From positions 270-64,269 of the IMG/VR virus record IMGVR_UViG_3300033144_001700: a DNA stretch of 64,000 nt; one strand, 5' to 3'. This DNA is from a virus. Its lineage: Duplodnaviria > Caudoviricetes. The notes beneath the pieces were generated by a model. That model saw only the letters and a program-made list of their open reading frames with translations. It was not told the origin of the DNA and did not search any database. The position numbers were made by a program, and so were the translations under genes. Positions 14,610 through 57,761 of the stretch are shown one piece after another (within the stretch, counting starts at the first letter, position 1; each line of letters begins with the position of its first letter).

Positions 14610-15635
14610 TTATCCGATTGCGAGGATGTGAATGGTGTCGGTCGTGGCCCAATCGATAGTGCCACCATTTTCGAGCAAGATGGCGTCGGGGAAATCGCCG
14701 GAACCGGCGATCACTGTGGTCGCGCCGCCCCATAGCTGAGTCGCGTTCGCTGCGGCAGTTTCCTTCTGGATGCCAGTCGCGGTGACCTTGACCTGTACGT
14801 GGACGAACACCGGAGTGAAGTCCACCGGGAAGATCATCTCTGCCGCCGTGACCTCTGCCGCTGTCGGCACACGCGTGAGCGCGACGATCTGACGCGACAC
14901 CGGATCGGCACCGCCAGCCAGCGCCACTGCATCGAAGACGTTGGTCGCTCCATTGAACGTCTCGGTCGTGGCCAAAGCCAGCACACCGATCGCCCTAGCT
15001 GCGATCACCAGGTCGTTGTCGTTGCGGCCCAAGGCGGTGACCAGTCCAGCCTGATCGGACTGAATGAACCGCGCGGGATTGGTCACGCCATCGACGGCGC
15101 TGATCGCTCCATCGTTGATGATCGCCGCAAGCGCGTCAGTGAAGAGCGCTGCTGTGAGACCGGCAGCGTTTGTCGGGACGCTGATCCTGTCAACCGGTCG
15201 AGCGTTCGACTGGTTGATCGTGGTCGTGTCAACGTGTGTTGCGGCTGTCGTGCCTGCCCAACCACGGATGACCGTGAACCGTGCGTTCTCAGCAGCGGCT
15301 CCGATGTTCTGAATCGCTGTGACAAGCAACCACTCCGTCTCGACTTCAAGGATGTCACCCACGAGGACAGGGATCGCCCAAACGCCAACGTCCGCCAGGA
15401 TGAACGTCTGGTCGTCAGTCATGCCGCCGACTTGTTCGACTTCCTGCGCCGTGTCGGTGTCGATGATATCGACCTCGAACACGTCAGTGCCGATGGTAAC
15501 TGTGTCGCCGTCAACGACATCCTCTTCGACGCGCATGATGCCGACCGCTCGTTCGCCTACGTCGTTCAGCAGAGCGCGGAGGTTGTTCAAACGTGCAAAA
15601 CCTCGACCGAAGTCGAAGGTCAGTGCCTTACTCAT
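14610..15635 (-). CDS. Putative capsid decoration/fibre protein
   Basis: Follows the major capsid gene; Thr/Ala/Val-rich; RGWAGTTAATH motif; AAAGGAG RBS. Confidence 0.55.
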   Translation of the reverse strand: MSKALTFDFGRGFARLNNLRALLNDVGERAVGIMRVEEDVVDGDTVTIGTDVFEVDIIDTDTAQEVEQVGGMTDDQTFILADVGVWAIPVLVGDILEVETEWLLVTAIQNIGAAAENARFTVIRGWAGTTAATHVDTTTINQSNARPVDRISVPTNAAGLTAALFTDALAAIINDGAISAVDGVTNPARFIQSDQAGLVTALGRNDNDLVIAARAIGVLALATTETFNGATNVFDAVALAGGADPVSRQIVALTRVPTAAEVTAAEMIFPVDFTPVFVHVQVKVTATGIQKETAAANATQLWGGATTVIAGSGDFPDAILLENGGTIDWATTDTIHILAIG

Positions 15636-15734
15636 TTTCTGTGCTCCTTTCGAGCCGCACCGTTATGGTGCCTGTTTCTCGGCTGACCCCTAAAGGTCGC
15701 CAGTCCGTTTGGTTGTTTGCTGATTGTGGTGATC

Positions 15735-15775
15735 GGTGCGCCGGTAGCCGAAGGAGATCAAACTACCGGCGCACC
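15735..15775. terminator. 13-bp perfect hairpin after the major capsid gene (terminator/stabiliser)
   Basis: GGTGCGCCGGTAG (15735-15747) / CTACCGGCGCACC (15763-15775); no clear U-tract. Confidence 0.55.
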
Positions 15776-15794
15776 TATAACCTTAGCCGTACCT

Positions 15795-28779: not shown

Positions 28780-28808
28780 AGTTTACCGTAGAGCATCCTG
28801 TATGTCAA
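28780..28808 (-). promoter_or_regulatory. Sigma70-like promoter TTGACA-N17-TAAACT with TCAGGTAAGAG leader
   Basis: Read directly; leader motif shared with promoters at 49767 and 63569. Confidence 0.78.
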
Positions 28809-29733: not shown

Positions 29734-32262
29734 CTAGAGACTCCAAGCCTCGGTGTCCAAAACTTTCTTCCACTGCGCCTTCGACCAACCGTTGAATCCG
29801 CCGTTCACTGGAATCTTCACCATGGCGCTAGCCATGTGCGGCGTGCCAAGCGATGACAATCCACCAGCACCGCTCCAGTCAGCTACCGACAACGTTCCTT
29901 GCCGATCGATCATCCAGAAGATGCGCTCCCACATCGCTGAGACCGCATCGACGCCTAGCATCGGTGTCAATTCTGCACTGATCGCCTGACCGTTCGCCAC
30001 CATGCTCTTCAGCATATCGACGTGAAATGGCTGCAACGTATCGGCTCCGACTCTCTCGGCCATCGACAGCATCTTGTGGTTGCCGAATCCAACGTGTGTC
30101 GGGTTGACCGGAAAGGCTAGGCCGTGGTCGATCAACGTGAACTCTTTCTTCGTGCCGTTCCACAAAGCGTTGCCCATGTGCCTGTCGGTGTTGCCGATGA
30201 TGCTATCGAACAAGGCGTTGTTAGTTAGTTCACGCTCGAAAACCTCATTGAACGCTTTACGCTTCGCCGATTCGGAGCCTCGACTGTACGCGTCCTTCCA
30301 GGCCTCGACACCTTCTTTGAACTGCTGCACCACCGACTCGCCCAGGTCGTCTCCAACCTTGTAGCCGTTGGCTCTAGCGTTGCTACTAAACCTCAACAGT
30401 TCGTCATCGATCTGATTTGTGACGTGGCGGATCACAGTGTCTTCAGGCACTTGGACTTTGACTCCACCTTGACTCGCATCGTCCATCATCTGCGCGATCC
30501 GCTGTGCCGCTTTCTCGCGCGGCAACTCTTCACCGACCGGTATACTTCCTCGTCTCACCGCGTCAGTCGGCTGGCCGAATCTCGGCTTGATGATGATCTT
30601 TGTTCCGTCCACAAGCTCTGCCGTGTAAACGTCGCTGACCGATTGGCCAGGTTTGAACGGCTTGATTGACCCTTCCTTGATCTCCATCGTCTGGTACTTT
30701 GAGCGGCTTGGCGTGCCTGACTGACCGGCCTTAGGTTTCGGTTTGGTGGTTGGCTTCGGGTTGGCTCTCGCTTTGATCTCTGACAGCTTACGTCGGTTGG
30801 CCGCAACCTTGATTTCTCGCTCTATGATTTGCCTTGCCTTGATCTCAGCGCGCTGCCTCACCCATCGTGCTCGGCCATCCGCCTTTAGGTTTTCCCACAT
30901 CCGCCGTCGAGCCGCTAGCTGCACGTTCTTATTGAACGCATCAGGCACCGGCATACCTTCGATATGCCAGTTCTGTTTCTCTTGAATCCGCAACCGACGC
31001 CAGAACTCCAAACGCCGATCTTGTGCAGCTAAAGGATAGAAATCGTCCGGCATATAGTTCTCGATATCAATGCCTTTCAGTTTCTTGTTGCGCTCTAGAA
31101 TCTTAGCCTGCCGTTTCTCCCAAATTTTGAGACGCAACTCCGGTTTCGCGTTAGGTAGAAAGTCATCCGGCATCTGCTTAACCGATGGCGACTTTTTGCT
31201 GCGCGGCTTCGCGCGTGCTCTCGGCTTCGCGCGGCGCGCTGGCTTCTTGTACCGCTTGTACGTCTTCGGTCGAACGACCTTCCGCTTGACGCTAAGGACT
31301 TTCTGTCCTTGAAGGAACGGCACGTCCCCTATCTGGTTGGCTTTCGGATCGATCGGAAACGGCTTCTGTCGTGGCAACCAGTTGCGCGTGTCGGCTGCGA
31401 TATCACACCGGCACCTTGGATGATCTGGTGGCCACATCGAACCGCTGCTGAAAGCCTCAGACATCGGCACCCATCCCTGAGCCTCATTGTCAGCACAGCC
31501 GACGTGAACGCCTGTGCCAGCAGTCAGCCAGCGCCGCCCTAAGATCCCGTTGTTGCGCATCGTAGTGTCGCTGACTTTACCGTACACGCGCGCCGTCTCT
31601 GTCCTTGCGATCGTCGTGGCGCGCGAGACCGTCATTCCCGCTTCGTTCATGCGCAGTCGGCGTGCCAGCGTCCCCATATCCAAAGGCGACGCTGGATTGG
31701 CGGCTTTGACCACTTGGTCAGCGATCAATTTCGGGAACTCGATCCCAACTGCTTTCTTCATCGCGCGCTCAGCCCCACGCATCAACCCAGGGTAGTACGT
31801 GTTGAACGTCTCGACGTTGGACAACCAGGCGTAACCCTTTGCGGGATCAACGATCTTCGTGACGTAGCCTAGCGCCGCGTGCGTCATCTCTGTCGCATCG
31901 GCTCCGGCTCTAGCCTGAAACTCTGCCCACGTCTTCGGCATCTTCAGGCTGGCCACGCGCCGCTCGAACACGACTTGCAGTTGGTCGCGCACCGTCTCCT
32001 TGGTCGCGCCTTTCTTCGACCACAGTTGACGTGCTGTTTCGATCTGCGTACGCGGTGATCCCATCCGCTTCAGCGCTCGGTGCAGATGCGGATTCATTAT
32101 CTCAAACGCCTCAGTCTCCGCGACCTGTCGGCGCACGTAACCTTCGGCGAAGAACTCTGGCCCTGCTACCGCCTTGTACATCTCGGACAGCATCTTGTGG
32201 ATCGCAAACCACCGCCGCCCTTTTTCGGTGTCAAGAAGTGATAAGGTCTTCGACGGAGCCAT
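29734..32262 (-). CDS. MuF/SPP1 gp7-type minor head protein fused to a C-terminal HipA/PI3-4K-like kinase domain
   Basis: RATTIARTET, C..N...PPDHPRCRC (MuF); IIKP, PREKAA, DSIIGNTDRHMGN, LIDHGLAF (kinase); GGAGG RBS at the 32262 start. Confidence 0.85.
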   Translation of the reverse strand: MAPSKTLSLLDTEKGRRWFAIHKMLSEMYKAVAGPEFFAEGYVRRQVAETEAFEIMNPHLHRALKRMGSPRTQIETARQLWSKKGATKETVRDQLQVVFERRVASLKMPKTWAEFQARAGADATEMTHAALGYVTKIVDPAKGYAWLSNVETFNTYYPGLMRGAERAMKKAVGIEFPKLIADQVVKAANPASPLDMGTLARRLRMNEAGMTVSRATTIARTETARVYGKVSDTTMRNNGILGRRWLTAGTGVHVGCADNEAQGWVPMSEAFSSGSMWPPDHPRCRCDIAADTRNWLPRQKPFPIDPKANQIGDVPFLQGQKVLSVKRKVVRPKTYKRYKKPARRAKPRARAKPRSKKSPSVKQMPDDFLPNAKPELRLKIWEKRQAKILERNKKLKGIDIENYMPDDFYPLAAQDRRLEFWRRLRIQEKQNWHIEGMPVPDAFNKNVQLAARRRMWENLKADGRARWVRQRAEIKARQIIEREIKVAANRRKLSEIKARANPKPTTKPKPKAGQSGTPSRSKYQTMEIKEGSIKPFKPGQSVSDVYTAELVDGTKIIIKPRFGQPTDAVRRGSIPVGEELPREKAAQRIAQMMDDASQGGVKVQVPEDTVIRHVTNQIDDELLRFSSNARANGYKVGDDLGESVVQQFKEGVEAWKDAYSRGSESAKRKAFNEVFERELTNNALFDSIIGNTDRHMGNALWNGTKKEFTLIDHGLAFPVNPTHVGFGNHKMLSMAERVGADTLQPFHVDMLKSMVANGQAISAELTPMLGVDAVSAMWERIFWMIDRQGTLSVADWSGAGGLSSLGTPHMASAMVKIPVNGGFNGWSKAQWKKVLDTEAWSL

Positions 32263-33967
32263 TTGCCTCCCCGGTGAAGTCTTCGATAAATCCTTCGACG
32301 CGCTCCAACTGACCTCTAACCGACGCCAACAAATCACGACCTTCCCGATCGCTAGCGTTGATCTGGAACGGCCCGTATCCGAACGCTGCTGTCAGTGCAG
32401 AACTTGCAGCGTCTTGCGGTATCTCACCCGACACACTCGTCAGGTACTCAGCCAACGTGATGTCGGCTCCGGCTGTGTCAGTGAACTCGTCTCGCTTCTC
32501 TAGGCCGATCCGTACCCGTCCTTCGTTGAGCGAGATCATGTTGATCTTCACCAGGTCGATCGCGATCTCCGCATCGTCACGTTCCTCGGTGATGTCCAGC
32601 GTCTCTAGATCGACACGGTACGGGAACTCTTCGAGACCTTCAGCACCGGTCGAAACCAATGCGCCTTCCGCACTTGCCACCGTCTCCGGCGACGCCGACG
32701 CCTCGGCTGTTCCCAAGGCGCGCACGTATTCCTCAGCGATGAAACGCGTCAGCCTGTCCTCGAACATCGCCTGCGCACGATCGACCACACCATCCTTGTA
32801 CGACCTGTTGATAGCTGTAGTAGCACTACCACCTAACGGCCCACGCCTGATCAATCCTACGCGGTCTGGTGGCATCCTGTGCGCCAAGAGAATCTTGTCA
32901 TCCAAGAACTCCATCAACTTGCCGAACTGCATATCGTTCTGGATCGCACCCATCCGCACGACCGTGATCTTGGCATCGCCATCGATCGGCAGAATCAAGT
33001 TCCGATGCGGATCGGAATGATTCTCGCGGAGTGACTGTGCGAACTGATCAGTGAACCGATCGGCTGCGCCAGCGTCCATCCCTGCCACCATGATCAGGTA
33101 GCGTGGCTCGCGGTTGTTCTCGAAGAATAGGATGTTGTGATCTCGTGCAGCGATCGACATCGTGATGTGACCCAACGCCGACACGTAGTTCGGGATGCCA
33201 TACTTGGTTGACCGGCGTGTCGGCTTGCGGAAGATCAAAATCTCGTTGGCCCATTTCAGCATCTCGCTAGTGTCGTTGCTGATCGGGTTGCCACTACTCG
33301 CCCTGATCTTGCCGGTCTCACTGTCGCCGTCAGTACCCCATTTCTGAAACCAAACGCGCTTCCCATCCCTGACCTGAACGAACTTCTTGCCGCTCCTGTG
33401 CGCTCGCAGCGTGTGGCCAGGTACGTGGTACAGGTGCGTCACCGCACCAGCGACATCGCGCCCGATCTCGAACGCGCCCCATCCTGTCACCTCATGGTCG
33501 CCGTCCACCGCCGTCAACTGTTCCAGCATCGTCTCTTCAACTGCCAGTCCGTAGAACCATCGCCGGATCGCCTCGCGCTCTTCTTCGTTGTCGGCGTCGT
33601 CGTCGCCTTTGATGACCGGGACGATCTTCGGCCCGTCTCCAACGATGTCAGTCGTCTTCTGTTCGAGCGCGGCGCTGTGGACTGGATGCGACTCAGCCAG
33701 CAACGTCAGTTGCTCCAAAGGGAAGGGCGGCTTCTTGATCGAGAAGCCGTAGTCGCTCGAATCCGAGAACGGGTCTTCCTCTAGCTGCTTACTGTCGTCT
33801 GGCAGCTTGAGGATTTCTTTACTGCCGCCGAAGCCAATGACCTTCGCGAAGAACTGCTGACCATCCTTGAAGCCAGCAGACTTCTTCATCTCGTCAGTGA
33901 CAAGGCTGTCCGGCGCTGGCTCGATCGTCATCTGCCTTTTGTTGTTCTTGGACTTCTTACGCGCCAT
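32231..33967 (-). CDS. Portal protein
   Basis: LYHVPGHTLR, EILIFR..YGIP, FFENNREP, DMQF...ILLAHRMPP, NEGR motifs; synteny. Confidence 0.9.
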   Translation of the reverse strand: MARKKSKNNKRQMTIEPAPDSLVTDEMKKSAGFKDGQQFFAKVIGFGGSKEILKLPDDSKQLEEDPFSDSSDYGFSIKKPPFPLEQLTLLAESHPVHSAALEQKTTDIVGDGPKIVPVIKGDDDADNEEEREAIRRWFYGLAVEETMLEQLTAVDGDHEVTGWGAFEIGRDVAGAVTHLYHVPGHTLRAHRSGKKFVQVRDGKRVWFQKWGTDGDSETGKIRASSGNPISNDTSEMLKWANEILIFRKPTRRSTKYGIPNYVSALGHITMSIAARDHNILFFENNREPRYLIMVAGMDAGAADRFTDQFAQSLRENHSDPHRNLILPIDGDAKITVVRMGAIQNDMQFGKLMEFLDDKILLAHRMPPDRVGLIRRGPLGGSATTAINRSYKDGVVDRAQAMFEDRLTRFIAEEYVRALGTAEASASPETVASAEGALVSTGAEGLEEFPYRVDLETLDITEERDDAEIAIDLVKINMISLNEGRVRIGLEKRDEFTDTAGADITLAEYLTSVSGEIPQDAASSALTAAFGYGPFQINASDREGRDLLASVRGQLERVEGFIEDFTGEANGSVEDLITS

Positions 33968-42400: not shown

Positions 42401-42429
42401 GGTATCGTAACTCAGCGACTCTTTGTCAA
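42401..42429 (-). promoter_or_regulatory. Putative class-II promoter TTGACA-N17-GATACC (leaderless radical SAM mRNA)
   Basis: ATG 7 nt after the -10 box with no RBS; -35 overlaps the sigma gene stop. Confidence 0.6.
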
Positions 42430-43088
42430 GCCAGTTCGTTAGCGCTGATGCGGCCCTGCAACCGTGAACGCAAGCCGTCAAGCGCCTCGTCGCGCAACGT
42501 CAGTACAGCCGTAACGCTGATGCCTCGGTTCCTCTCCTTCGCCAAAATGTTCCCGATCTGCGCCGCCGACATTCCGTGCGTGAGTAGCAGTATCACCGCA
42601 CACTGCCTAGGCGGGAGCGACGCCAAAGCTGCCACCAATTCACCGGTCACTTTTGGTGGCAACGAATCGTTGACTGCACTGTAAGTGTCGTCAGATGGAA
42701 GCTCGGCGGGATTTATATCCTCGATCGGCGTGGTGTGAACGTCTCGCGTTCGACTGTTATCTGACAGTCTTCGGATCGTATCGAACATCGCGCCACGTAT
42801 CCTGAGAAAGCTGAAGGAGCGAAACGTATAGCCGCTGTCCTTGTCGTATTTTTCCAGAGCTTGCAGCAGCCCGATCACGCCGACAGCAATCAAGTCTTCT
42901 TCGTCCACCAGGTGTGGGATCGGGTTCTCAATCTTCTTGCGCGCGATCGATCTAACGTAACCGATGTGAGCTTCGATGACCCTTGTTCGATTGGCTGAAG
43001 TGCTACGCTTGATGTACGCCAGCACTGGCGATCCTTTGCGCTCTCGCGCTGTACGCTTTTTCTTGACCGGCTTTTTCTTACTGACCAT
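42426..43088 (-). CDS. RNA polymerase sigma factor, FliA/WhiG-like
   Basis: EDLIAVGVIGLLQALEKYD...FRSFSFLRIRGAMFDTIR (region 2); LASLPPRQ...AQIGNIL (region 4). Confidence 0.85.
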   Translation of the reverse strand: MVSKKKPVKKKRTARERKGSPVLAYIKRSTSANRTRVIEAHIGYVRSIARKKIENPIPHLVDEEDLIAVGVIGLLQALEKYDKDSGYTFRSFSFLRIRGAMFDTIRRLSDNSRTRDVHTTPIEDINPAELPSDDTYSAVNDSLPPKVTGELVAALASLPPRQCAVILLLTHGMSAAQIGNILAKERNRGISVTAVLTLRDEALDGLRSRLQGRISANELA

Positions 43089-43650
43089 CCGGCACCAACA
43101 AAGCAAGTTTGTGCCGATCAATTTCCTCCACGAACCGCGCGACCTGAGCTTGGTCATAAGCGATCGCGTGTCGCATCTCGTAGTTGTGGCGCACCGCCCC
43201 AGGTTGATAGACGCCGATCACGTAGCACCCAACATCGTGTCGGAAGACAAAGCCGTGATCCTTCGACAGCTTCTCTATGCCACCGATGAACTTGCTCGCC
43301 TCAGCACCGACAGTGATCACCAGCACTGGCGCGATGATGTGGATGTAATGCCGGAGGTTCCAACTAAAACACGCCCTGTATTCTTCGTTGGTTGGCTTCC
43401 GATCCAGAGTGTGACACATCATGCTGTTCGTGAGGTACGTGTCTTCAGGCTTCAGTCCTGCACCCGTCAACCACTTCCTCAGCAGTAATCCATCCGGCCC
43501 GAACCACGGCGTGTTTTCCAAGTCTTCTTCCGGCCCAGGCTGACGGCCTACCACCATCACGTCGGCTGGCGTCGGGCCTTTACCGATCACCGGCTGACAC
43601 GCCGAGTCCCGCGCCGGACATTTGTGGCAACCCTTCGCCACCGCATCCAT
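43078..43650 (-). CDS. Uracil-DNA glycosylase family 4-like (start uncertain)
   Basis: CHKC, VMVVGRQPGPEED, YLTNSMMC...KPT..E..AC, YQPG. Confidence 0.85.
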   Translation of the reverse strand: MDAVAKGCHKCPARDSACQPVIGKGPTPADVMVVGRQPGPEEDLENTPWFGPDGLLLRKWLTGAGLKPEDTYLTNSMMCHTLDRKPTNEEYRACFSWNLRHYIHIIAPVLVITVGAEASKFIGGIEKLSKDHGFVFRHDVGCYVIGVYQPGAVRHNYEMRHAIAYDQAQVARFVEEIDRHKLALLVPDGQ

Positions 43651-49126: not shown

Positions 49127-49444
49127 CTAGTTCCGGTTGATCTTGTTGATGCAGCGGGTGCAGGTGACTTCGTTGTTGTCGTCGGTGAGGTTGTGGTGAG
49201 TGTTGTTCCATGCGCGGGTGTTGTGGCCGCAGTAGGCGTAGTCGCGTCCTTCACCCTTGCCGAAGGTGGCGATCTTGTGAATCTTGACGCCGGGTGTGGC
49301 GGCGGTGGCGGGAGTGGCGGCGGTCTTGCACTCTTTGCAGGTCTTGTAGCTGTCGAATGACCATGCAGGGTTCGTGCAGTTTGTGTTCTGGCAAGTCGGC
49401 ATATCGGTGGCTCCTGCGGTTGTGGTGGCCTGTGTGTTCTTCAT
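49127..49444 (-). CDS. Cys-rich early protein (MKNT..., near-leaderless)
   Basis: ATG 8 nt after the -10 box; C-x4-C, CKEC, YCGH, CTRC. Confidence 0.65.
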   Translation of the reverse strand: MKNTQATTTAGATDMPTCQNTNCTNPAWSFDSYKTCKECKTAATPATAATPGVKIHKIATFGKGEGRDYAYCGHNTRAWNNTHHNLTDDNNEVTCTRCINKINRN

Positions 49445-49452
49445 CTGATGTA

Positions 49453-49482
49453 AGAATACACCTAGAGCTTAGAGTATGTCAA
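49453..49482 (-). promoter_or_regulatory. Sigma70-like promoter TTGACA-N18-TATTCT
   Basis: 24/25 nt identical to the promoter at 49775-49799. Confidence 0.78.
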
Positions 49483-49622: not shown

Positions 49623-49736
49623 CTAGCTCCTTGTGTTGAGGTTGAAGAACTTGCGGATCATGTTGACGATGGTGCTGTCGCCGTAGGTGCGGTGGAAATC
49701 TGTCTGGCTTAGTTCTTGCATCCTCGCGTTTGTCAT
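49623..49736 (-). CDS. 37-aa protein MTNARMQEL...FNLNTRS
   Basis: AAGGAGCTAGGAA-ATG start; its TAG stop lies inside the next copy of the motif. Confidence 0.6.
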   Translation of the reverse strand: MTNARMQELSQTDFHRTYGDSTIVNMIRKFFNLNTRS

Positions 49737-49766
49737 TTCCTAGCTCCTTACCTCTTACCTGATGCA

Positions 49767-49796
49767 ATTATGCGCCTAGAGCTTAGGGTATGTCAA
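49767..49796 (-). promoter_or_regulatory. Sigma70-like promoter TTGACA-N18-CATAAT with TCAGGTAAGAG leader
   Basis: Read directly. Confidence 0.8.
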
Positions 49797-49815
49797 GCGC
49801 TCTGAGCGCAGAGGA

Positions 49816-50061
49816 TCAACCCCTGCGCTCAAAGTAATCTCGCATCTCTCGCGGGATGTGGATCGAGCGGAAGATCATCCGCCACTTCATCCGGTGGTAC
49901 TGCTTGATACCGCGCTCGCTGTGGCGCTCCCGATCGATGCTCGACTCGTAAGACTCGTGAGGATGTGACTTGCCTCTGTGGTCGTTCTCAGGGCGGGAGT
50001 CGTCCCATCTGATCTTCAACCAATGATCACTGTTCACGATCTCCGGAATGTACTTGAACAT
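49816..50061 (-). CDS. Basic 81-aa protein downstream of the hairpin array
   Basis: Strong AAGGAAAGGAG RBS before MFKYIPEIV. Confidence 0.6.
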   Translation of the reverse strand: MFKYIPEIVNSDHWLKIRWDDSRPENDHRGKSHPHESYESSIDRERHSERGIKQYHRMKWRMIFRSIHIPREMRDYFERRG

Positions 50062-50079
50062 CGGACGGCTCCTTTCCTT

Positions 50080-50545
50080 TGACCCAGGCGCTCCAGGTTG
50101 ATCGCATCTTGAAGAGGTCACCATCTGCGCCGCGATGTTCCCGCAGTAGCGAACTGGCGCTGCGCTTTCTCGTCGCACATGGATGGTTGGCACTGGCCAG
50201 AGCATCACTGGTGTGAGGATGGCGACCTCTTCGAGATGGTCGAGAGACTGACGAATCTGGCAAGGGCGGTCTGCATACTTTGGCTCCGCCTCTCTTGCAG
50301 CTATTCAAACCAGCGCTTGCGCGCCTGAGACAGCGGCTTCTCGTGATCTGCGAGTAGCAATATCTTGGTGGCAGGGAGCTACCCTCGCCAGATTCGTTGG
50401 TCTCTCGACCGGGTAGTGAAGGGGCCGTACTCTCTCCGTTGTACACGGCGCGAAACTTGCGGCCCCTTCACTGGTGGCTGAAGTTTTCGGTGGTGCATCG
50501 GTCTGGCTTTGTCGGCCTCGCCTCGTCCTCTTACTTGCTTCAACC
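50080..50545 (-). ncRNA. Candidate large structured non-coding RNA/leader (three back-to-back long hairpins)
   Basis: Stems 50105-50125/50218-50238, 50238-50269/50379-50410 and 50415-50427/50460-50472; own promoter upstream; no credible ORF; family unknown. Confidence 0.65.
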
Positions 50546-50551
50546 TCGACA

Positions 50552-50581
50552 ACCTTACTCCCTAGAGCACAACCATGTCAA
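50552..50581 (-). promoter_or_regulatory. Sigma70-like promoter TTGACA-N18-TAAGGT
   Basis: Spacer carries GCTCTAGG as in the promoters at 49453 and 49767; GTAAGAGG downstream. Confidence 0.68.
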
Positions 50582-50590
50582 CCCCAACGC

Positions 50591-50636
50591 AAAAGAGCGA
50601 CACCGCTCCACGTTTCACAATCAAACGGTGCCGCTC
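50591..50636 (-). terminator. Rho-independent terminator after the DUF932-like gene
   Basis: GAGCGGCACCG/CGGTGTCGCTC stem followed by TTTT on the minus strand. Confidence 0.7.
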
Positions 50637-50654
50637 ACTTGCTCTACAAATCGT

Positions 50655-51758
50655 CTAGGCGATAACCCTGTGGCAGTTGGTGCAGACTTCGGGATGGCTA
50701 GCGACCTGTCCGCCGATGCGCATCAGCTTACGAGCCAACGTCGGATCGGCTTCGTTCTCACCGCCGTCTCCGACAACATCGGGATGGTTCGACGCAACCC
50801 AGGTCACAGCGTTCAGCACGTCGTAGAGCGTCCGTGCGCCAACGTCCACGACGCGCTCCGTAACCAGTTCTCGGATGTTGACCGGCACACTGAACTCGCT
50901 GTACACACCTTGCAGTGCGTCGCTCATGTGGCCATCGAAGTTGATCGAAGCCAACCGCCCTTGACGTTCGATCTCTTCATCACCGGCATCGAGCGCCGCC
51001 TTCAGAGCATCGAACATCCAGTCGTCGGAACCGTCGTCGGAACCGTCGCGGTTCGCGGCCTGACGGAAGATCGACTCGGCACTGATCATCCCGTTGGTGC
51101 AGAGCATCGTGTGAACGTAGGTGCTGAACGTCAGCGGGTGAGCTTGTGCGTGGCTGTACTCGATCGTCACTCCGGTGCGCACAGCTTCGCGCATCGAAAC
51201 GTGACCGCCGCGCTTCGCTGCGCGCTCGATCACTTCCTTGTCTTCGTGCGTCACGATCGACAAAGTTGTGTCGTACATCGTGTGGCTGACGTGATGAGCC
51301 GACAGGTCGGCCTCGCTGCCGCCTGTGTACTCGATCGTCTTGTCAAGGATGCGGCCCATCGGAATCAAGTCGAGCTTCGACCGGCTGAAGATTTCGATCT
51401 GGTCATCGATCGCGGCCATCCCGATCATCTGGATTCCTCGGTTGGCGATCCAGTGATTCATGTGCGGGATCATCAGTTCGTGCGGCGTCCTCTGCACGTA
51501 GGCTTTCGGGATTCCAAGGAACGATCCCGCCGCCAGGTACGCGTCCCTCGACACAAGCCACTCGCCTATGCCTTCGCGACGTTGGCTGCGCTTGTCCCGC
51601 GCCTTGCGCTCGAACGTCATCAGCCCGTCAGCGTCCAGTTGGAACCGGCTCGTCACCTTCTCTTCGGTCGGAGAGAAGTTGATGATCGTCGCGTTCTCGG
51701 CGCGGTCGATCCGTTCCCGCACTTCGGGAATCGTCATCGTCTTTGTCATCGTTGTCAT
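50655..51758 (-). CDS. DUF932/DUF945-like protein
   Basis: HTMLCTNGMI and TLYDVLNAVT motifs; AAAGGAG RBS. Confidence 0.65.
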   Translation of the reverse strand: MTTMTKTMTIPEVRERIDRAENATIINFSPTEEKVTSRFQLDADGLMTFERKARDKRSQRREGIGEWLVSRDAYLAAGSFLGIPKAYVQRTPHELMIPHMNHWIANRGIQMIGMAAIDDQIEIFSRSKLDLIPMGRILDKTIEYTGGSEADLSAHHVSHTMYDTTLSIVTHEDKEVIERAAKRGGHVSMREAVRTGVTIEYSHAQAHPLTFSTYVHTMLCTNGMISAESIFRQAANRDGSDDGSDDWMFDALKAALDAGDEEIERQGRLASINFDGHMSDALQGVYSEFSVPVNIRELVTERVVDVGARTLYDVLNAVTWVASNHPDVVGDGGENEADPTLARKLMRIGGQVASHPEVCTNCHRVIA

Positions 51759-52162
51759 TAAGCGTCTCCTTTCGATGACTCTTCGTCGTTGTCCTTCTGT
51801 AATGGTATGGCGATCCGCTCTCCTATCCGCAAGATGCGGCCCACAGGACACGCCACATCGTGATCGAGCGCGAAACACTTTGGATTGCCGCAAAGAACTT
51901 CGTCATCCATCTTGTCCAAGTCTTGAATCGCTAAGCGAAGTTCGGCGTACTCCATCCTGAACGCGACGACGTACTGCAACGCGTCGCCTAGTTCTTGCTG
52001 CAAATCAAGGAGATGATCGCGACCGTCGAACGTCATCAGAGTTTGACCGTACCGCTCGATCCCGATCGCCTGTCGCGACTCGATAAACTCAACGACCTTG
52101 CTCGTCACATCGGCACTGATATCGTCAGTGTCCGGCCTCTTCTGTTCGTCAGCTTCATTCAT
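51758..52162 (-). CDS. Putative MazG-like nucleotide pyrophosphohydrolase
   Basis: GIERYGQTL...LQQELGDALQY helical motif. Confidence 0.5.
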   Translation of the reverse strand: MNEADEQKRPDTDDISADVTSKVVEFIESRQAIGIERYGQTLMTFDGRDHLLDLQQELGDALQYVVAFRMEYAELRLAIQDLDKMDDEVLCGNPKCFALDHDVACPVGRILRIGERIAIPLQKDNDEESSKGDA

Positions 52163-53301
52163 TCTGATTCTCCTTCCAGGTTAGCCGGTGCGAACGCTAG
52201 CTCGGTCGGCGTCGGCGTCTTCTCGCGTATCTTCTGAGGCTTCGTCTCCGGCTCTGAGCTTGGATTCTGAGCGAGCGCATCCATCACCGCATCTCTGAGT
52301 ATCCGGTACTTGTCGCCGTTCTCTGACAGCCATCTCAGCAGCGCCTCTAATCCGTTCTGCTTCTTGGCATTTCGGAACGGTAGCACGTAGAAGTTGCCGG
52401 ACTTCTTAACGATGCCCCTACCTTCGGCGATCTCGACAATAGTCTGCGGCTCGAACAACCCGAACTTATCTCGGATGTAGAAGGTGCCTTCCCTGAACGG
52501 CGCACCAGTCTTGTTCTTCACCACCTTTGCCAGAATCTTCACCGCGACCGGCCCGTCAACCAGGCCACCTGTAATCCGATCCTCGATCTTACCGGCAAAG
52601 GATTTGATCGTGATCAACTCGACACGAACGCTAGCGTAAAACTTCAACGCAGTGCCGCCAGGTGTCGTCTTGCGCGCCATCTTGCCGAACGTTGCCAGCG
52701 GTACACGGACGTGGTTGAGGAAGATCATCACGACTCCGCTCGCGCTGATCTTCTTGGTCAGTCGCCGGAGAACCTTCGACATCGCTCGCGCCTGTTCCGC
52801 GATGGTGCTGTCTTCGATCTCACCTTCGATCTCTTTCTTGGTCGGCATCGACGCCAGCGAGTCGCAGATGATCAAATCGACAGTATCCGATTCGATGAAC
52901 TCTTCGGCGATCGTCATCCCTTCTTCTAACGTAGTTGGCTGCGCCAACTGGAATCGGTCGGCGCTCAAATCGACTCCGTGCAAGCCAGCGTAGTACGGAT
53001 CGAAACTGTTCTCGAAATCCAAGTACAACACGCTGCCGTTGTTGTCTAGCTGCGCCTGATGCGCGCACGCCAGGGCGAGCGAAGATTTGCCGCTCGACGG
53101 GTTGCCGTACAGTTCAACGATCCGTCCACGCGGGAAGCCGCCACAGCCGATCGCCAAATCCAGCAGGATCGCACCGGTACTGATCGCGTCGATCTGCTGT
53201 TCATCGATCACGCTCTGATCGAGCGAAACCAGCGCACCGATCCCGTGCTTTTTAACGACCGCCGCCGCCGCAGATTTGAACGTAGGTTTACGAGCCGCCA
53301 T
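52159..53301 (-). CDS. recA: RecA recombinase
   Basis: ISTGAILLDLAIG.GGFPRGRIVELYGNPSSGKS, QARAMS, TTPGGTALKFYASVR, VVKNK. Confidence 0.96.
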   Translation of the reverse strand: MAARKPTFKSAAAAVVKKHGIGALVSLDQSVIDEQQIDAISTGAILLDLAIGCGGFPRGRIVELYGNPSSGKSSLALACAHQAQLDNNGSVLYLDFENSFDPYYAGLHGVDLSADRFQLAQPTTLEEGMTIAEEFIESDTVDLIICDSLASMPTKKEIEGEIEDSTIAEQARAMSKVLRRLTKKISASGVVMIFLNHVRVPLATFGKMARKTTPGGTALKFYASVRVELITIKSFAGKIEDRITGGLVDGPVAVKILAKVVKNKTGAPFREGTFYIRDKFGLFEPQTIVEIAEGRGIVKKSGNFYVLPFRNAKKQNGLEALLRWLSENGDKYRILRDAVMDALAQNPSSEPETKPQKIREKTPTPTELAFAPANLEGESE

Positions 53302-55490: not shown

Positions 55491-57761
55491 CTACGCCTTC
55501 GTCAGTTGACGTGCTACTGATGCCGCGATCTCGCCGCTGGCTTTCACGACCACGTTTTCGATCTCGTGACTCAACAACTCTTCAAGCTCCGGCACTCCCA
55601 AAGATGTCGCGTGTTTCTTCATCGCGTGTCCACCGACAGTGACAACGTTCAACCCAGGGTAGCTCGCCAGTATCCGTTTGATCATCTTCGCGATCAACGC
55701 TGTCGGCTCGGTGTCGCCTAGATCGATCTCGATCTTGATGCCGGTCGTCGCCTTCGCTTCCTCGGTCAACGCTAATTGCTCTTCGCCTTCGACTGGCGGC
55801 TCGCCCATCTTCTCGATCAACTCTTGGCGTTCCTTCCACAAGTTATAGCGCCATTTCTTGCCGTACTTCTTGTTCGGCTCGTACGCCTTCAGAGTTGCCC
55901 AACTGATCCCGATCTCGGCATCGACCTTGATCCTCGGCAGTCCTTCGATCTCCATCGACATCGCTTCCGTGATGATCGGTATGATGTCCTGCGGCTTCAC
56001 CGACTTGTGAATTTCCCACGTCTGGCTGTCGTGCGTCTGAAGGATCAGCTTCGCCAGGTCTTCCGGCCACAGTGCGGATACGGCGAGCGGCGTCTTGACC
56101 AATCCTGTCTTGTGGTAATCCGCCGCCGTGCCTTGCACGATCCGGTTGACACTGGCGCGCTCGGCCTTCGACGCTGCACCCTTGCCACGCATAAAGAACT
56201 CCGGCACGACTTGCCATCTGCCAAAGTGCGTCACTACTTTCTTGATGACGCGTGCGCGGTCGCGCGTGCGCTGACTCCACTGTTGCATCTTCGGTCGCGC
56301 TGTGTAGAACGCCGCCAGGTCGCGCTCGGCTTCGGCTTCGCTGGTCTCGTTCCGCGTCGCCAGCAGCTTCGCGCCGCCGCCGTACAGCAGCAAGTAATTC
56401 CACGTCTTCGCTTTGCGCCGGAGCGTCGGCGTCACGTCATCGTAATCAACGTGCGCCACTTCACTCGCCGTCTGTTTGTGAACGTCAAGGCCAGCGAGAT
56501 AATCCCTGACGATCTTGTCTTCACCGGACAGCGCCGCCATGATGATGTACTCGATCTGAGCGTAGTCGAACTCGATCAAATAGTAATCGTCCTCGGCGAC
56601 CACGACATCGCGTGGCTTGACTTGAATCTTGTAAGTCGATCCGTCCAGCCGGATGATCTTCCATTCCTTCATCTTCGACACGTTCTGCATATTCGGTTCG
56701 CTCGAAGAGAACCGACCGGTAGTCGCGCCGGTCTGGTTGTAGTTGGTGTGGACTCTGCCGGTGTGCGGGTTGACGTTCTTGATGATGTCGCCAGCCATCT
56801 TGCTCAGGTTGCTCGTCATCGATCGATACATCGCCACGTTGTGACAGACTGGATATTCGTCGGCCAATTTTTCCAGAACGTCCTTGCCAGTGCTCGGCTC
56901 CTTGGTCGTCGGCGATCGCGCCAGCACCGGGAGTCCCATCCGATTGAAGAGCACGTCCGCCAACTGTAAAGGCGATCCGATGTTGAACTCGACGCGCTCT
57001 TCCAACGCCTGTTCGATCTGATCGTAGATGATCTCCTTGACCTTCTCAGCCTCAGTCTTCACGTAGTTGATCAGTCGCGCCAGGTAATCGGGATCGACCT
57101 TCGCGCCGTACCCTTCGATCCTCTGAACCACCGGCCACAGCTTTTGCTCTAGTCGATGCACGTATCCGTTGTGCGGTGTCGCCTTCGCTCGCGATGCAAA
57201 TTTGTTGTGGACTCTCAGCGCGAAGTCAGCATCTTCGCCAGCGTAATCAGTAGCCTCTTCGATCAGGATCGTGGCGAAATTCCTGTCAGCCTCTTTCATC
57301 CTCGGTGGGAACAACTCAGAGAACGTCGTCATCCGATACTGAAACACAGCCATGACGATCGCGTCGAGACTGAACCGCTCGAAGCCTTCGCCAACAACGT
57401 AGACTTCGAGCATCGCATCGATCACGGTTTTGGGTCTGACCTTTAATCCAGCGGCGATCATAAACCGCGTATCAAACTTGGCGTTGTACATCACCAAGAT
57501 TTTGTTGCTTTCGATGATCGGCCTCAACGCTTCGATCACCAACGCCGCGTCTAAGTTCTTGCCCTTGTCATGCGCGACCGGAACGTACCAGGCCTCGCGC
57601 TCGTGAACGCTGATCGCCCAACCAACGATGAAGTCGCGGTCAGCGTCGAAGCCGCTAGTTTCCAAGTCTATCGCGATCGTGTCAGCTTGACGCAACTGGC
57701 GCATCATCACGCGCAGTTTCTTCTTGGTGTCTACGGTTCGGTATCTAGCTCCGGTCGTCAA
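55491..57761 (-). CDS. polA: Family A DNA polymerase (3'-5' exonuclease + polymerase, no 5' nuclease)
   Basis: IDLETSG, YNAKFD, YAGEDA; TGRFSSSEPNMQN, FDYAQIE, RRKAKTWNYLLLYG, QGTAAD, QTHDS. Confidence 0.95.
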   Translation of the reverse strand: MTTGARYRTVDTKKKLRVMMRQLRQADTIAIDLETSGFDADRDFIVGWAISVHEREAWYVPVAHDKGKNLDAALVIEALRPIIESNKILVMYNAKFDTRFMIAAGLKVRPKTVIDAMLEVYVVGEGFERFSLDAIVMAVFQYRMTTFSELFPPRMKEADRNFATILIEEATDYAGEDADFALRVHNKFASRAKATPHNGYVHRLEQKLWPVVQRIEGYGAKVDPDYLARLINYVKTEAEKVKEIIYDQIEQALEERVEFNIGSPLQLADVLFNRMGLPVLARSPTTKEPSTGKDVLEKLADEYPVCHNVAMYRSMTSNLSKMAGDIIKNVNPHTGRVHTNYNQTGATTGRFSSSEPNMQNVSKMKEWKIIRLDGSTYKIQVKPRDVVVAEDDYYLIEFDYAQIEYIIMAALSGEDKIVRDYLAGLDVHKQTASEVAHVDYDDVTPTLRRKAKTWNYLLLYGGGAKLLATRNETSEAEAERDLAAFYTARPKMQQWSQRTRDRARVIKKVVTHFGRWQVVPEFFMRGKGAASKAERASVNRIVQGTAADYHKTGLVKTPLAVSALWPEDLAKLILQTHDSQTWEIHKSVKPQDIIPIITEAMSMEIEGLPRIKVDAEIGISWATLKAYEPNKKYGKKWRYNLWKERQELIEKMGEPPVEGEEQLALTEEAKATTGIKIEIDLGDTEPTALIAKMIKRILASYPGLNVVTVGGHAMKKHATSLGVPELEELLSHEIENVVVKASGEIAASVARQLTKA

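Follow-up and report, generated by a model that had tools for sequence, protein, structure and literature searches.

Long-range RNA stalks that close large loops are ordinary substrates of RNase III, familiar examples being the leader-trailer helices of ribosomal RNA operons, sites between the cistrons of T7 early mRNA, and lambda sib. Two further kinds of system invite comparison, namely the ColE1 RNA II pre-primer together with the promoter-dependent origins of T4 and T7, and the promoter-early stem-loop (PeSL) cassettes of T4-type phages, which Arbiol et al. are said to have described in 2010. In E. coli, intramolecular RNase III targets carry two cuts that lie 16-1080 nucleotides (nt) apart, with a median of 58 (PMC6212723). 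MITEs (miniature inverted-repeat transposable elements) do occur in viral genomes and are rare there, being found in 0.01% of viral sequences (PMC11602168). Herein we describe an array of three inverted-repeat units at 50105-50472 on the minus strand of a 64,000-nt window from a marine phage (Duplodnaviria; Caudoviricetes; IMG/VR record IMGVR_UViG_3300033144_001700, positions 270 to 64,269). The window is nearly the whole of this 64,269-bp virus record, which has a completeness estimate of 77% and a G+C content of ~57%, and the array had been singled out in a preliminary description made from the letters and open reading frames (ORFs) alone.

Between its promoter and the gene of an 81-amino-acid (aa) protein, the locus holds ~440 nt of non-coding DNA in which three stem-closed units stand end to end. 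As in the RNase III stalks above, long-range, near-perfect helices of about two turns or more would close large loops in a primary transcript, the modules standing in series just behind a host-type promoter of a phage operon. The array differs from those stalks in that its three helices abut with no gene or stable RNA inside them, and in that its loops are short (32-115 nt) and unstructured, yet conserved in sequence, while three of the five stem irregularities would be A.C in sense RNA. Our first choice among the explanations considered, and a tentative one, is a transcribed untranslated leader in which RNase III-type processing stalks would surround sequence-constrained loops. The array belongs to no described RNA family.

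Results

A repeat search recovered three abutting inverted repeats at the positions first proposed, with units of 58, 173 and 134 nt. Unit 1 (50415-50472, minus strand as are all parts of the array) is closed by G+C-rich arms at 50415-50427 and 50460-50472 that pair at 13 of 13 positions around a 32-nt interior. Unit 2 (50238-50410) has arms at 50238-50266 and 50382-50410, paired at 26 of 29 positions (90%) around 115 nt, and unit 3 (50105-50238) has arms at 50105-50125 and 50218-50238, paired at 19 of 21 positions (90%) around 92 nt. Base 50238 is common to units 2 and 3, and a 4-nt gap separates units 1 and 2. The unit 2 helix consists of 11 bp, a 2x2 mismatch and 16 bp, and that of unit 3 of 5 bp, a 1x1 mismatch and 15 bp; both thus hold the intramolecular helix of at least ~20 bp in a transcribed region that marks an RNase III stalk, unit 1 having 13 bp.

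The three repeats rank first, second and fourth of nine inverted repeats within 250 nt in the 64-kb window. Two repeats with at least 19 matched bases were observed, against a mean of 0.025 per window in 40 dinucleotide shuffles, and five with at least 13 matched bases against a mean of 1.75, while 301 kb of unrelated phage loci contained a single repeat with at least 19. Since the repeats rank at the top of the window, exceed the shuffles and are rare in unrelated loci, their clustering is real and well beyond chance. The idea that the units are repeated, paralogous structures fared less well, as neither direct nor tandem repeats were found inside the array and the likeness of the arms is close to what chance gives. 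For the closing stems of units 1 and 3, thought to be related, the best agreement within the arms is at 8 of 11 positions, a value reached by 347 of 5000 shuffles; the 9 of 11 given earlier counts one base outside the arm. The units do possess the terminal inverted repeats, small size and lack of an internal transposase gene that characterise MITEs. Their flanks share 3-nt coincidences only (ACC on both sides of unit 1), at chance level, and target-site duplications were not identified.

Coding potential was assessed by codon-usage log-odds trained on 23 long genes, which gave 0.31 ± 0.16 per codon in frame and -0.37 ± 0.19 off frame. No coding signal was found in 50062-50560, where the best frame scored at most 0.06 per codon (0.08 on the plus strand); the three ORFs overlapping the array scored -0.08 to -0.17, and the 81-aa, 37-aa and 105-aa ORFs beyond it 0.21-0.34. 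Because all frames, on both strands, score far below in-frame gene windows, the stretch is non-coding, and the earlier judgement that it holds no credible ORF is confirmed.

The array is preceded by an intrinsic terminator hairpin (50592-50637, minus strand), which ends the upstream operon (RecA-like gene to 367/412-aa gene). Folded within 50583-50655, it reaches -33.5 kcal/mol (z -5.22, none of 200 shuffles as stable), with a 14-bp core stem followed by UUUU, in agreement with its first identification. The promoter P50581 follows (50552-50581, minus strand); in it 18 nt separate TTGACA (50581-50576) from TAAGGT (50557-50552). Its reality is backed by alignment with three paralogous sites (49796, 49482 and 28808) that directly precede genes. 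The resulting four-copy family (50552-50581, 49767-49796, 49453-49482 and 28780-28808) has invariant TTGACAT and GCTCTA.GG and follows the pattern TTGACAT, 6-7 nt, GCTCTAGG and the -10 hexamer, often with CAGGTAAGAG after it. The distance from promoter to start codon is ~40-70 nt for the three paralogues versus ~485 nt for P50581, where the shared leader motif precedes the array and the ribosome-binding site follows it.

ORFs of at least 200 aa in the window all lie on the minus strand, bar a 454-aa plus-strand ORF antisense to the 412-aa gene, and the promoter scan of the region found no antisense promoter. The array is almost certainly transcribed, since it stands on the sense strand behind a promoter in a genome whose long ORFs are on the minus strand. 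Promoter alignment, strand and coding scores thereby uphold the preliminary description of a stretch that is promoter-driven and untranslated. The leader would begin with a 5' part (H0, 50473-50549) in which an 8-bp stem surrounds 55 nt; it is poorly conserved and no more stable than chance would allow (z -1.33 and -1.66, 13 of 200 shuffles as stable). It would end in an unstructured tail (50062-50104) whose Shine-Dalgarno motif, GGAG (50069-50072), precedes the ATG by 7 nt. This tail folds worse than its shuffles (z +1.40 and +1.67) and shows no sign of sequestering the ribosome-binding site, an idea that was rejected on this ground.

The whole of the ~500 nt folds far better than shuffled sequence on both strands (z -6.8 and -6.15), as do the units on the minus strand (z -6.46, -6.77 and -5.13 for units 1, 2 and 3, within an overall range of -5.1 to -6.9). 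The interiors alone give z-scores on the minus and plus strands of -1.11 and -0.65 (unit 1), +0.24 and -0.20 (unit 2) and -0.22 and -0.44 (unit 3). Because the interiors without their arms fold like random sequence, the units are long-range stems closing loops without significant structure, not rods, and the imperfect pairing supposed to continue inside the two large units (z +0.24 and -0.22 on the minus strand) is not borne out.

This anatomy also removes a resemblance between unit 2 and 6S RNA. The two are alike in length (173 nt for unit 2), and the phage encodes at least one sigma-70-like protein (42426-43157); 6S RNA, which binds the sigma-70 holoenzyme, is a mostly double-stranded rod of ~180 nt with a central bubble, whereas the 115-nt interior of unit 2 folds no better than shuffles and only its 29-nt terminal arms add stability. 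Unit 2 was rejected as 6S RNA on this ground and for want of a match to RF00013 or related models, even at E up to 10. The comparison with known families that the preliminary description had proposed was made against all 4227 families of Rfam 15 (including GOLLD, ROOL, HEARO, OLE, ribozymes and riboswitches) and returned no match at the gathering threshold in the whole window, 6S included. At E up to 10, six weak rows appeared within 49700-50900, from unrelated families and each more than 15 bits below its gathering score. Neither transfer RNA nor transfer-messenger RNA was found.

The imperfections of the stems do not reveal which strand is selected, as had been remarked at the outset. All five in the two long stems are transitions, giving two G.U and three A.C on the minus strand and three G.U and two A.C on the plus strand; unit 2 has two adjacent A.C mismatches and one G.U in the sense strand. 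The flanking hairpins differ in this respect, with three G.U pairs and no mismatch in the terminator stem and two G.U pairs in the hairpin after the 81-aa gene, so that five of five are compatible with sense RNA. The early caveat that a role might be played by the DNA itself is justified by this difference.

Conservation was examined in relatives from four marine metagenome runs of a single study (X1-X4), represented by contigs only, with 32 of the 142 aligned pieces listed. Among the listed pieces of X1-X3, units 1-3 including their loops diverge by ~2-3% as against 5-12% in the flanking genes, about three times less. Within the array, other letters were found at 2 of 128 positions in X1 (50223-50350, no gaps), 7 of 215 in X1 (50035-50249, 14 gaps), 7 of 240 in X3 (50110-50349, no gaps) and 2 of 106 in X2 (50360-50465, two gaps). 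The 81-aa gene differs at 28 of 224 positions in X1 (two gaps) and 29 of 239 in X3 (one gap). Upstream, the counts are 66 of 982 in X1 for a piece that starts inside the array (50360-51341, 17 gaps), 116 of 1484 in X1 (51517-53000, 26 gaps), 25 of 281 in X2 (50556-50836, 12 gaps), 82 of 1382 in X2 (50874-52255, four gaps) and 19 of 365 in X3 (50624-50988, four gaps). Leader segments outside units 1-3 are not conserved in the same pieces; a piece of X3 that includes the 5' segment (50387-50539) has 14 of 153 other letters and four gaps. Stems and loops alike appear to be under constraint, apparently through purifying selection, and the loops probably carry sequence-specific information because they are as conserved as the stems. 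The indels are at places that could absorb them in an RNA module. One nt is deleted from the 4-nt linker, at 50413, in X1-X3, and in the unit 2 loop (50350-50360) X2 has 40 nt in place of 9 (50351-50359), the contigs of X1 and X3 ending at 50349-50350.

X4 is more divergent, with 122 of 939 letters different in its 412-aa gene. A 248-nt contig (record 27) aligns exactly over unit 3, 50105-50238, with 18 other letters and six gaps, while its 51 and 61 flanking letters fail to align, and there is no depth over 50338-50504. Such exact end-points, together with the lower divergence of the units than of their flanks, are also what would be seen if the units were small selfish or formerly mobile MITE-like elements, inserted side by side into a promoter-leader module of ~65 nt, with any effect on RNA being incidental. 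Terminal repeats of 13-29 bp around structureless interiors, unit sizes of 58-173 nt, strand-neutral stem mismatches and the occurrence of MITEs in viral genomes agree with this, as does the position of the array between leader motif and ribosome-binding site, which extends to ~485 nt a distance of ~40-70 nt in the paralogues. Set against the viral MITEs (vMITEs; PMC11602168), the array units are alike in having terminal inverted repeats, lengths of ~60-170 nt and an intergenic, non-coding position, and in being present or absent between relatives; they differ in being single-copy, in that three unlike units abut, and in having no recognisable target duplication and no transposase.

The search for further copies tells against mobility. 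No second copy of any unit exists in the 64,269-bp record, and in the four metagenomes the units are covered no more deeply than their flanks, with no sign of a multi-copy family. Arm patterns were scanned for units 2 and 3 only. The unit 2 pattern had no match in IMG/VR and one in a JGI metagenome scan, which was dismissed as chance, its 22 bases falling within an unrelated gene of 613 aa without a partner arm. The unit 3 pattern had none in IMG/VR and 13 in GTDB genomes, all rejected as chance single-arm matches of 21-34 nt. Neither unit thus has a genuine copy of its arms in these collections. In addition, domain scans of 40 of the ~85 tiling ORFs found no transposase, recombinase or reverse transcriptase, target-site duplications were not identified, and for three unlike elements to land within 0-4 nt of one another, they would have to prefer their target strongly. 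An origin of the array from MITE-like elements is, in our estimate, possible but unlikely.

Far less credible is an inverton reading, in which a site-specific recombinase would flip unit 2, unit 3 or both and so switch read-through into the 81-aa gene and beyond. Inverted repeats of 21-29 bp do flank segments of 92-115 bp between promoter and gene, and unit 3 has a terminator-like hairpin on the plus strand (50146-50163) that inversion would place on the sense strand. However, terminator-like sites occur in the region at chance frequency (11 found, 11.0 expected), the scanned ORFs hold no recombinase domain, the repeat sequences differ between units, unlike those of shufflon-type systems, and phase variation would be of no evident benefit to a lytic phage that carries its own replisome. 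No inversion joint over the array was listed for the X1-X4 contigs, which cannot show rare orientations.

Outside these relatives the element has no counterpart in the collections searched. A blastn search with 49800-50700 against INPHARED phages gave no match; IMG/VR, queried with the 412-aa, RecA-like and 81-aa proteins, gave no close relative and a single RecA match at 35% identity; and in the protein collection the 412-aa and 81-aa proteins each find themselves alone. In none of 42 IMG/VR loci with a 412-aa homologue (at most 29% identity), retrieved with a profile of that family, do the 700 nt downstream of the homologue contain an inverted repeat with at least 14 bases matched. Annotated phages come no nearer than actinobacteriophages, very distant at 23-25% identity for the 412-aa protein. 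The annotated phages Magritte and Guwapp lack such an array after the homologue, the gap there in Magritte measuring 66 nt. The possibility that the position of the array is conserved in distant kin was rejected on these loci. Since they lack a comparable repeat, the array is specific to this lineage. The literature consulted on phage inverted repeats and origins, phage MITEs, and RNase III and phage leaders contained nothing describing this element. The check for targets of the array within the phage genome, suggested earlier, was negative, with a longest complementary match of 13 nt (E 0.39) and no internal target.

The genes around the array (domain scans of the same 40 ORFs) supply the phage with a replication and recombination set of its own. 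Upstream on the minus strand are an ATP-dependent ligase, a clamp-loader-like protein, a Toprim primase, a dCTP deaminase, a family A polymerase (55491-57761), a RecA/UvsX-like protein (52159-53301) and, directly before the terminator, a 367/412-aa protein to which no function is assigned (50655-51893). Downstream come three small ORFs and a gamma-glutamyl cyclotransferase-like protein; then SbcC-like and SbcD-like proteins, a PD-(D/E)XK nuclease, a beta clamp, a uracil-DNA glycosylase and the sigma-70-like protein; and, further on, a radical SAM protein, a clamp loader, terminase, ribonucleotide reductase and portal.

This setting, with a promoter facing a sequence-constrained non-coding stretch of ~485 nt inside a replication and recombination gene block, recalls a site acting as DNA: a transcript-primed origin, or a fragile site, prone to hairpins, at which the SbcCD-like nuclease of the phage would cut to start RecA-dependent replication. 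The hairpins are equally able to form on both strands, and no dedicated initiator gene was recognised among the ORFs scanned, which makes a transcript- or recombination-primed start plausible. As in ColE1 RNA II and the origins of T4 and T7, a promoter would drive an untranslated multi-hairpin RNA of ~500 nt in a replication block, and the 3' end of the leader is purine-rich; in contrast to them, no AT-rich element, antisense promoter or RNase H gene was found (the last among the ORFs scanned), and the leader passes without a break into a translated gene. Every 100-nt stretch of the array has a G+C fraction of 0.55-0.60, leaving no AT-rich unwinding element, and neither iterons nor tandem repeats are present. 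Extrusion of a cruciform from duplex DNA is unlikely across spacers of 92-115 nt, which are also poor substrates for lagging-strand hairpins, and the 42 distant-relative loci and two annotated phages lack an array at the same position. A DNA-level role is suggested only by neighbourhood and promoter, without the usual features of an origin, and we regard it as improbable.

The 81-aa gene (49816-50061, minus strand), the first after the array, scores 0.21 per codon with a G+C fraction at third codon positions of 0.77. Its product has no Pfam or PHROG family and finds itself alone among 5.8 billion proteins; the suggestion that the array works with this basic protein gains no support from such an orphan. 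A seemingly perfect 15-bp hairpin at 49800-49834 (minus strand; -27.9 kcal/mol, z -7.2) holds the 81-aa stop codon in its loop and is not followed by a U run. Another hairpin, the third-ranked inverted repeat of the window (15728-15782, minus strand), is a 55-nt unit with 18 of 20 positions matched. It stands in the gap ahead of a 341-aa gene (14610-15635) and probably serves as terminator or stabiliser in front of a structural gene with high expression.

At three of the promoter copies (50581, 49796 and 49482) a hairpin comes first and small orphan ORFs come after, of 81, 37 and 43, and 105 aa respectively. Such hairpin-plus-promoter modules are like PeSL cassettes, the difference being that the cargo of PeSL cassettes is ORFs, whereas here it begins with ~440 nt of non-coding sequence bounded by hairpins. 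The start codon (ATG, 49444) of the 105-aa ORF lies 8 nt past the -10 hexamer of P49482 without a Shine-Dalgarno sequence (49442-49482, minus strand), from which the mRNA would be leaderless or nearly so. In X4, a contig of low depth (2) joins 49749 back to 49445, just downstream of two of the paralogous promoters, and hints at duplication or shuffling of cassettes between promoter repeats in the relatives. Summed depth rises to 27-38 over 49169-49335, compared with 5-10 nearby, in all four runs; this is a Thr/Pro/Ala-rich part of the 105-aa ORF with a 9-nt repeat, a low-complexity sequence that probably attracts contigs of other organisms.

The 367-aa protein upstream, so called from its likely start (50655-51758, minus strand), is assigned to phrog_1362 and is a neighbour of the RecA-like gene; the order RecA then 367/412-aa homologue recurs in Microbacterium phage Magritte. 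With a 412-aa family profile, 1.84 billion representatives yielded 273 relatives (E <= 0.001), of which the best has 42% identity, and the 367-aa family has invariant residues G196, C220, N222, G223, W247, C359 and C362. Its AlphaFold model (predicted local distance difference test, pLDDT, 92) gave no PDB match in Foldseek at E <= 0.001, and the best VIA-align Z of 6.9 is within noise; structure comparison accordingly yields no clue to an initiator or transposase. Next to the portal gene, an 867-aa protein (29734-32337, minus strand) has a weak PI3/PI4-kinase or HipA-like match (E 2e-6 and 3e-5) at residues ~686-762.

Discussion

We propose that the array would serve as the untranslated 5' leader of the transcript from P50581, as well as of any transcript that reads through from upstream. 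In such RNA the inverted repeats would form long-range helices of 13, 29 and 21 bp, end to end, closing largely unstructured loops of 32, 115 and 92 nt. Host RNase III may cut these stalks, making the array a module for processing and stability, which we consider its most likely use because the helix lengths are of the size that this enzyme cuts. Cleavage would detach the leader from the mRNA of the 81-aa gene and release the loop segments, whose contents would be sequence-specific, for instance protein- or RNA-binding segments, rather than mere spacing. The fold in vivo, the cutting by RNase III and the roles of the products are what we infer from anatomy, context and conservation. The preliminary description had imagined the units cut into separate RNAs, an idea that fits stems of 21-29 bp closing large loops.

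A more specific version holds that the locus is a phage small-RNA operon, yielding a polycistronic precursor in which the stalks are signals for RNase III excision and the loops (32, 115 and 92 nt) the products. These would act as early-released guides, sponges or decoys against host functions, and related phages would gain and lose the units like cassettes. We think this version quite improbable.

Several observations weigh against the leader we propose. Interiors without excess structure are unusual for a dedicated structured RNA and are the anatomy of terminal-inverted-repeat elements. The counts of G.U pairs against A.C mismatches in sense RNA, 5:0 in the flanking hairpins versus 2:3 in the array stems (Fisher one-sided p ~0.08), turn the strand-neutral mismatches into a modest argument that the stalks are not strictly selected as helices of sense RNA. 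In X4 only unit 3 aligns, with breakpoints at its ends, which fits the insertion or loss of discrete DNA units too. The -10 hexamer of P50581 matches 3 of 6 positions only, and a generic consensus scan omits the promoter for this reason. Finally, the conservation is seen in contigs of one metagenome study. With these points counted, we still place the processed leader first, at somewhat less than even confidence, ahead of MITE-like elements in second place and a DNA-level site in third, and regard an inverton as very unlikely.

The non-coding regions of uncultured phages are mostly ignored, and this one, a small and clearly bounded locus, is unusual in its build, with tiled helices closing loops that are unstructured but conserved. 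Constraint on the array appears about as strong as that on amino-acid-determining positions, though no RNA family describes it. If the loops are released as RNAs, the array would give a lytic phage a compact means of delivering several regulatory RNAs from a single promoter; should it instead be a site where replication starts at the DNA level, beside the RecA-like and SbcCD-like genes, it would be a pointer to how this group of phages begins replication.

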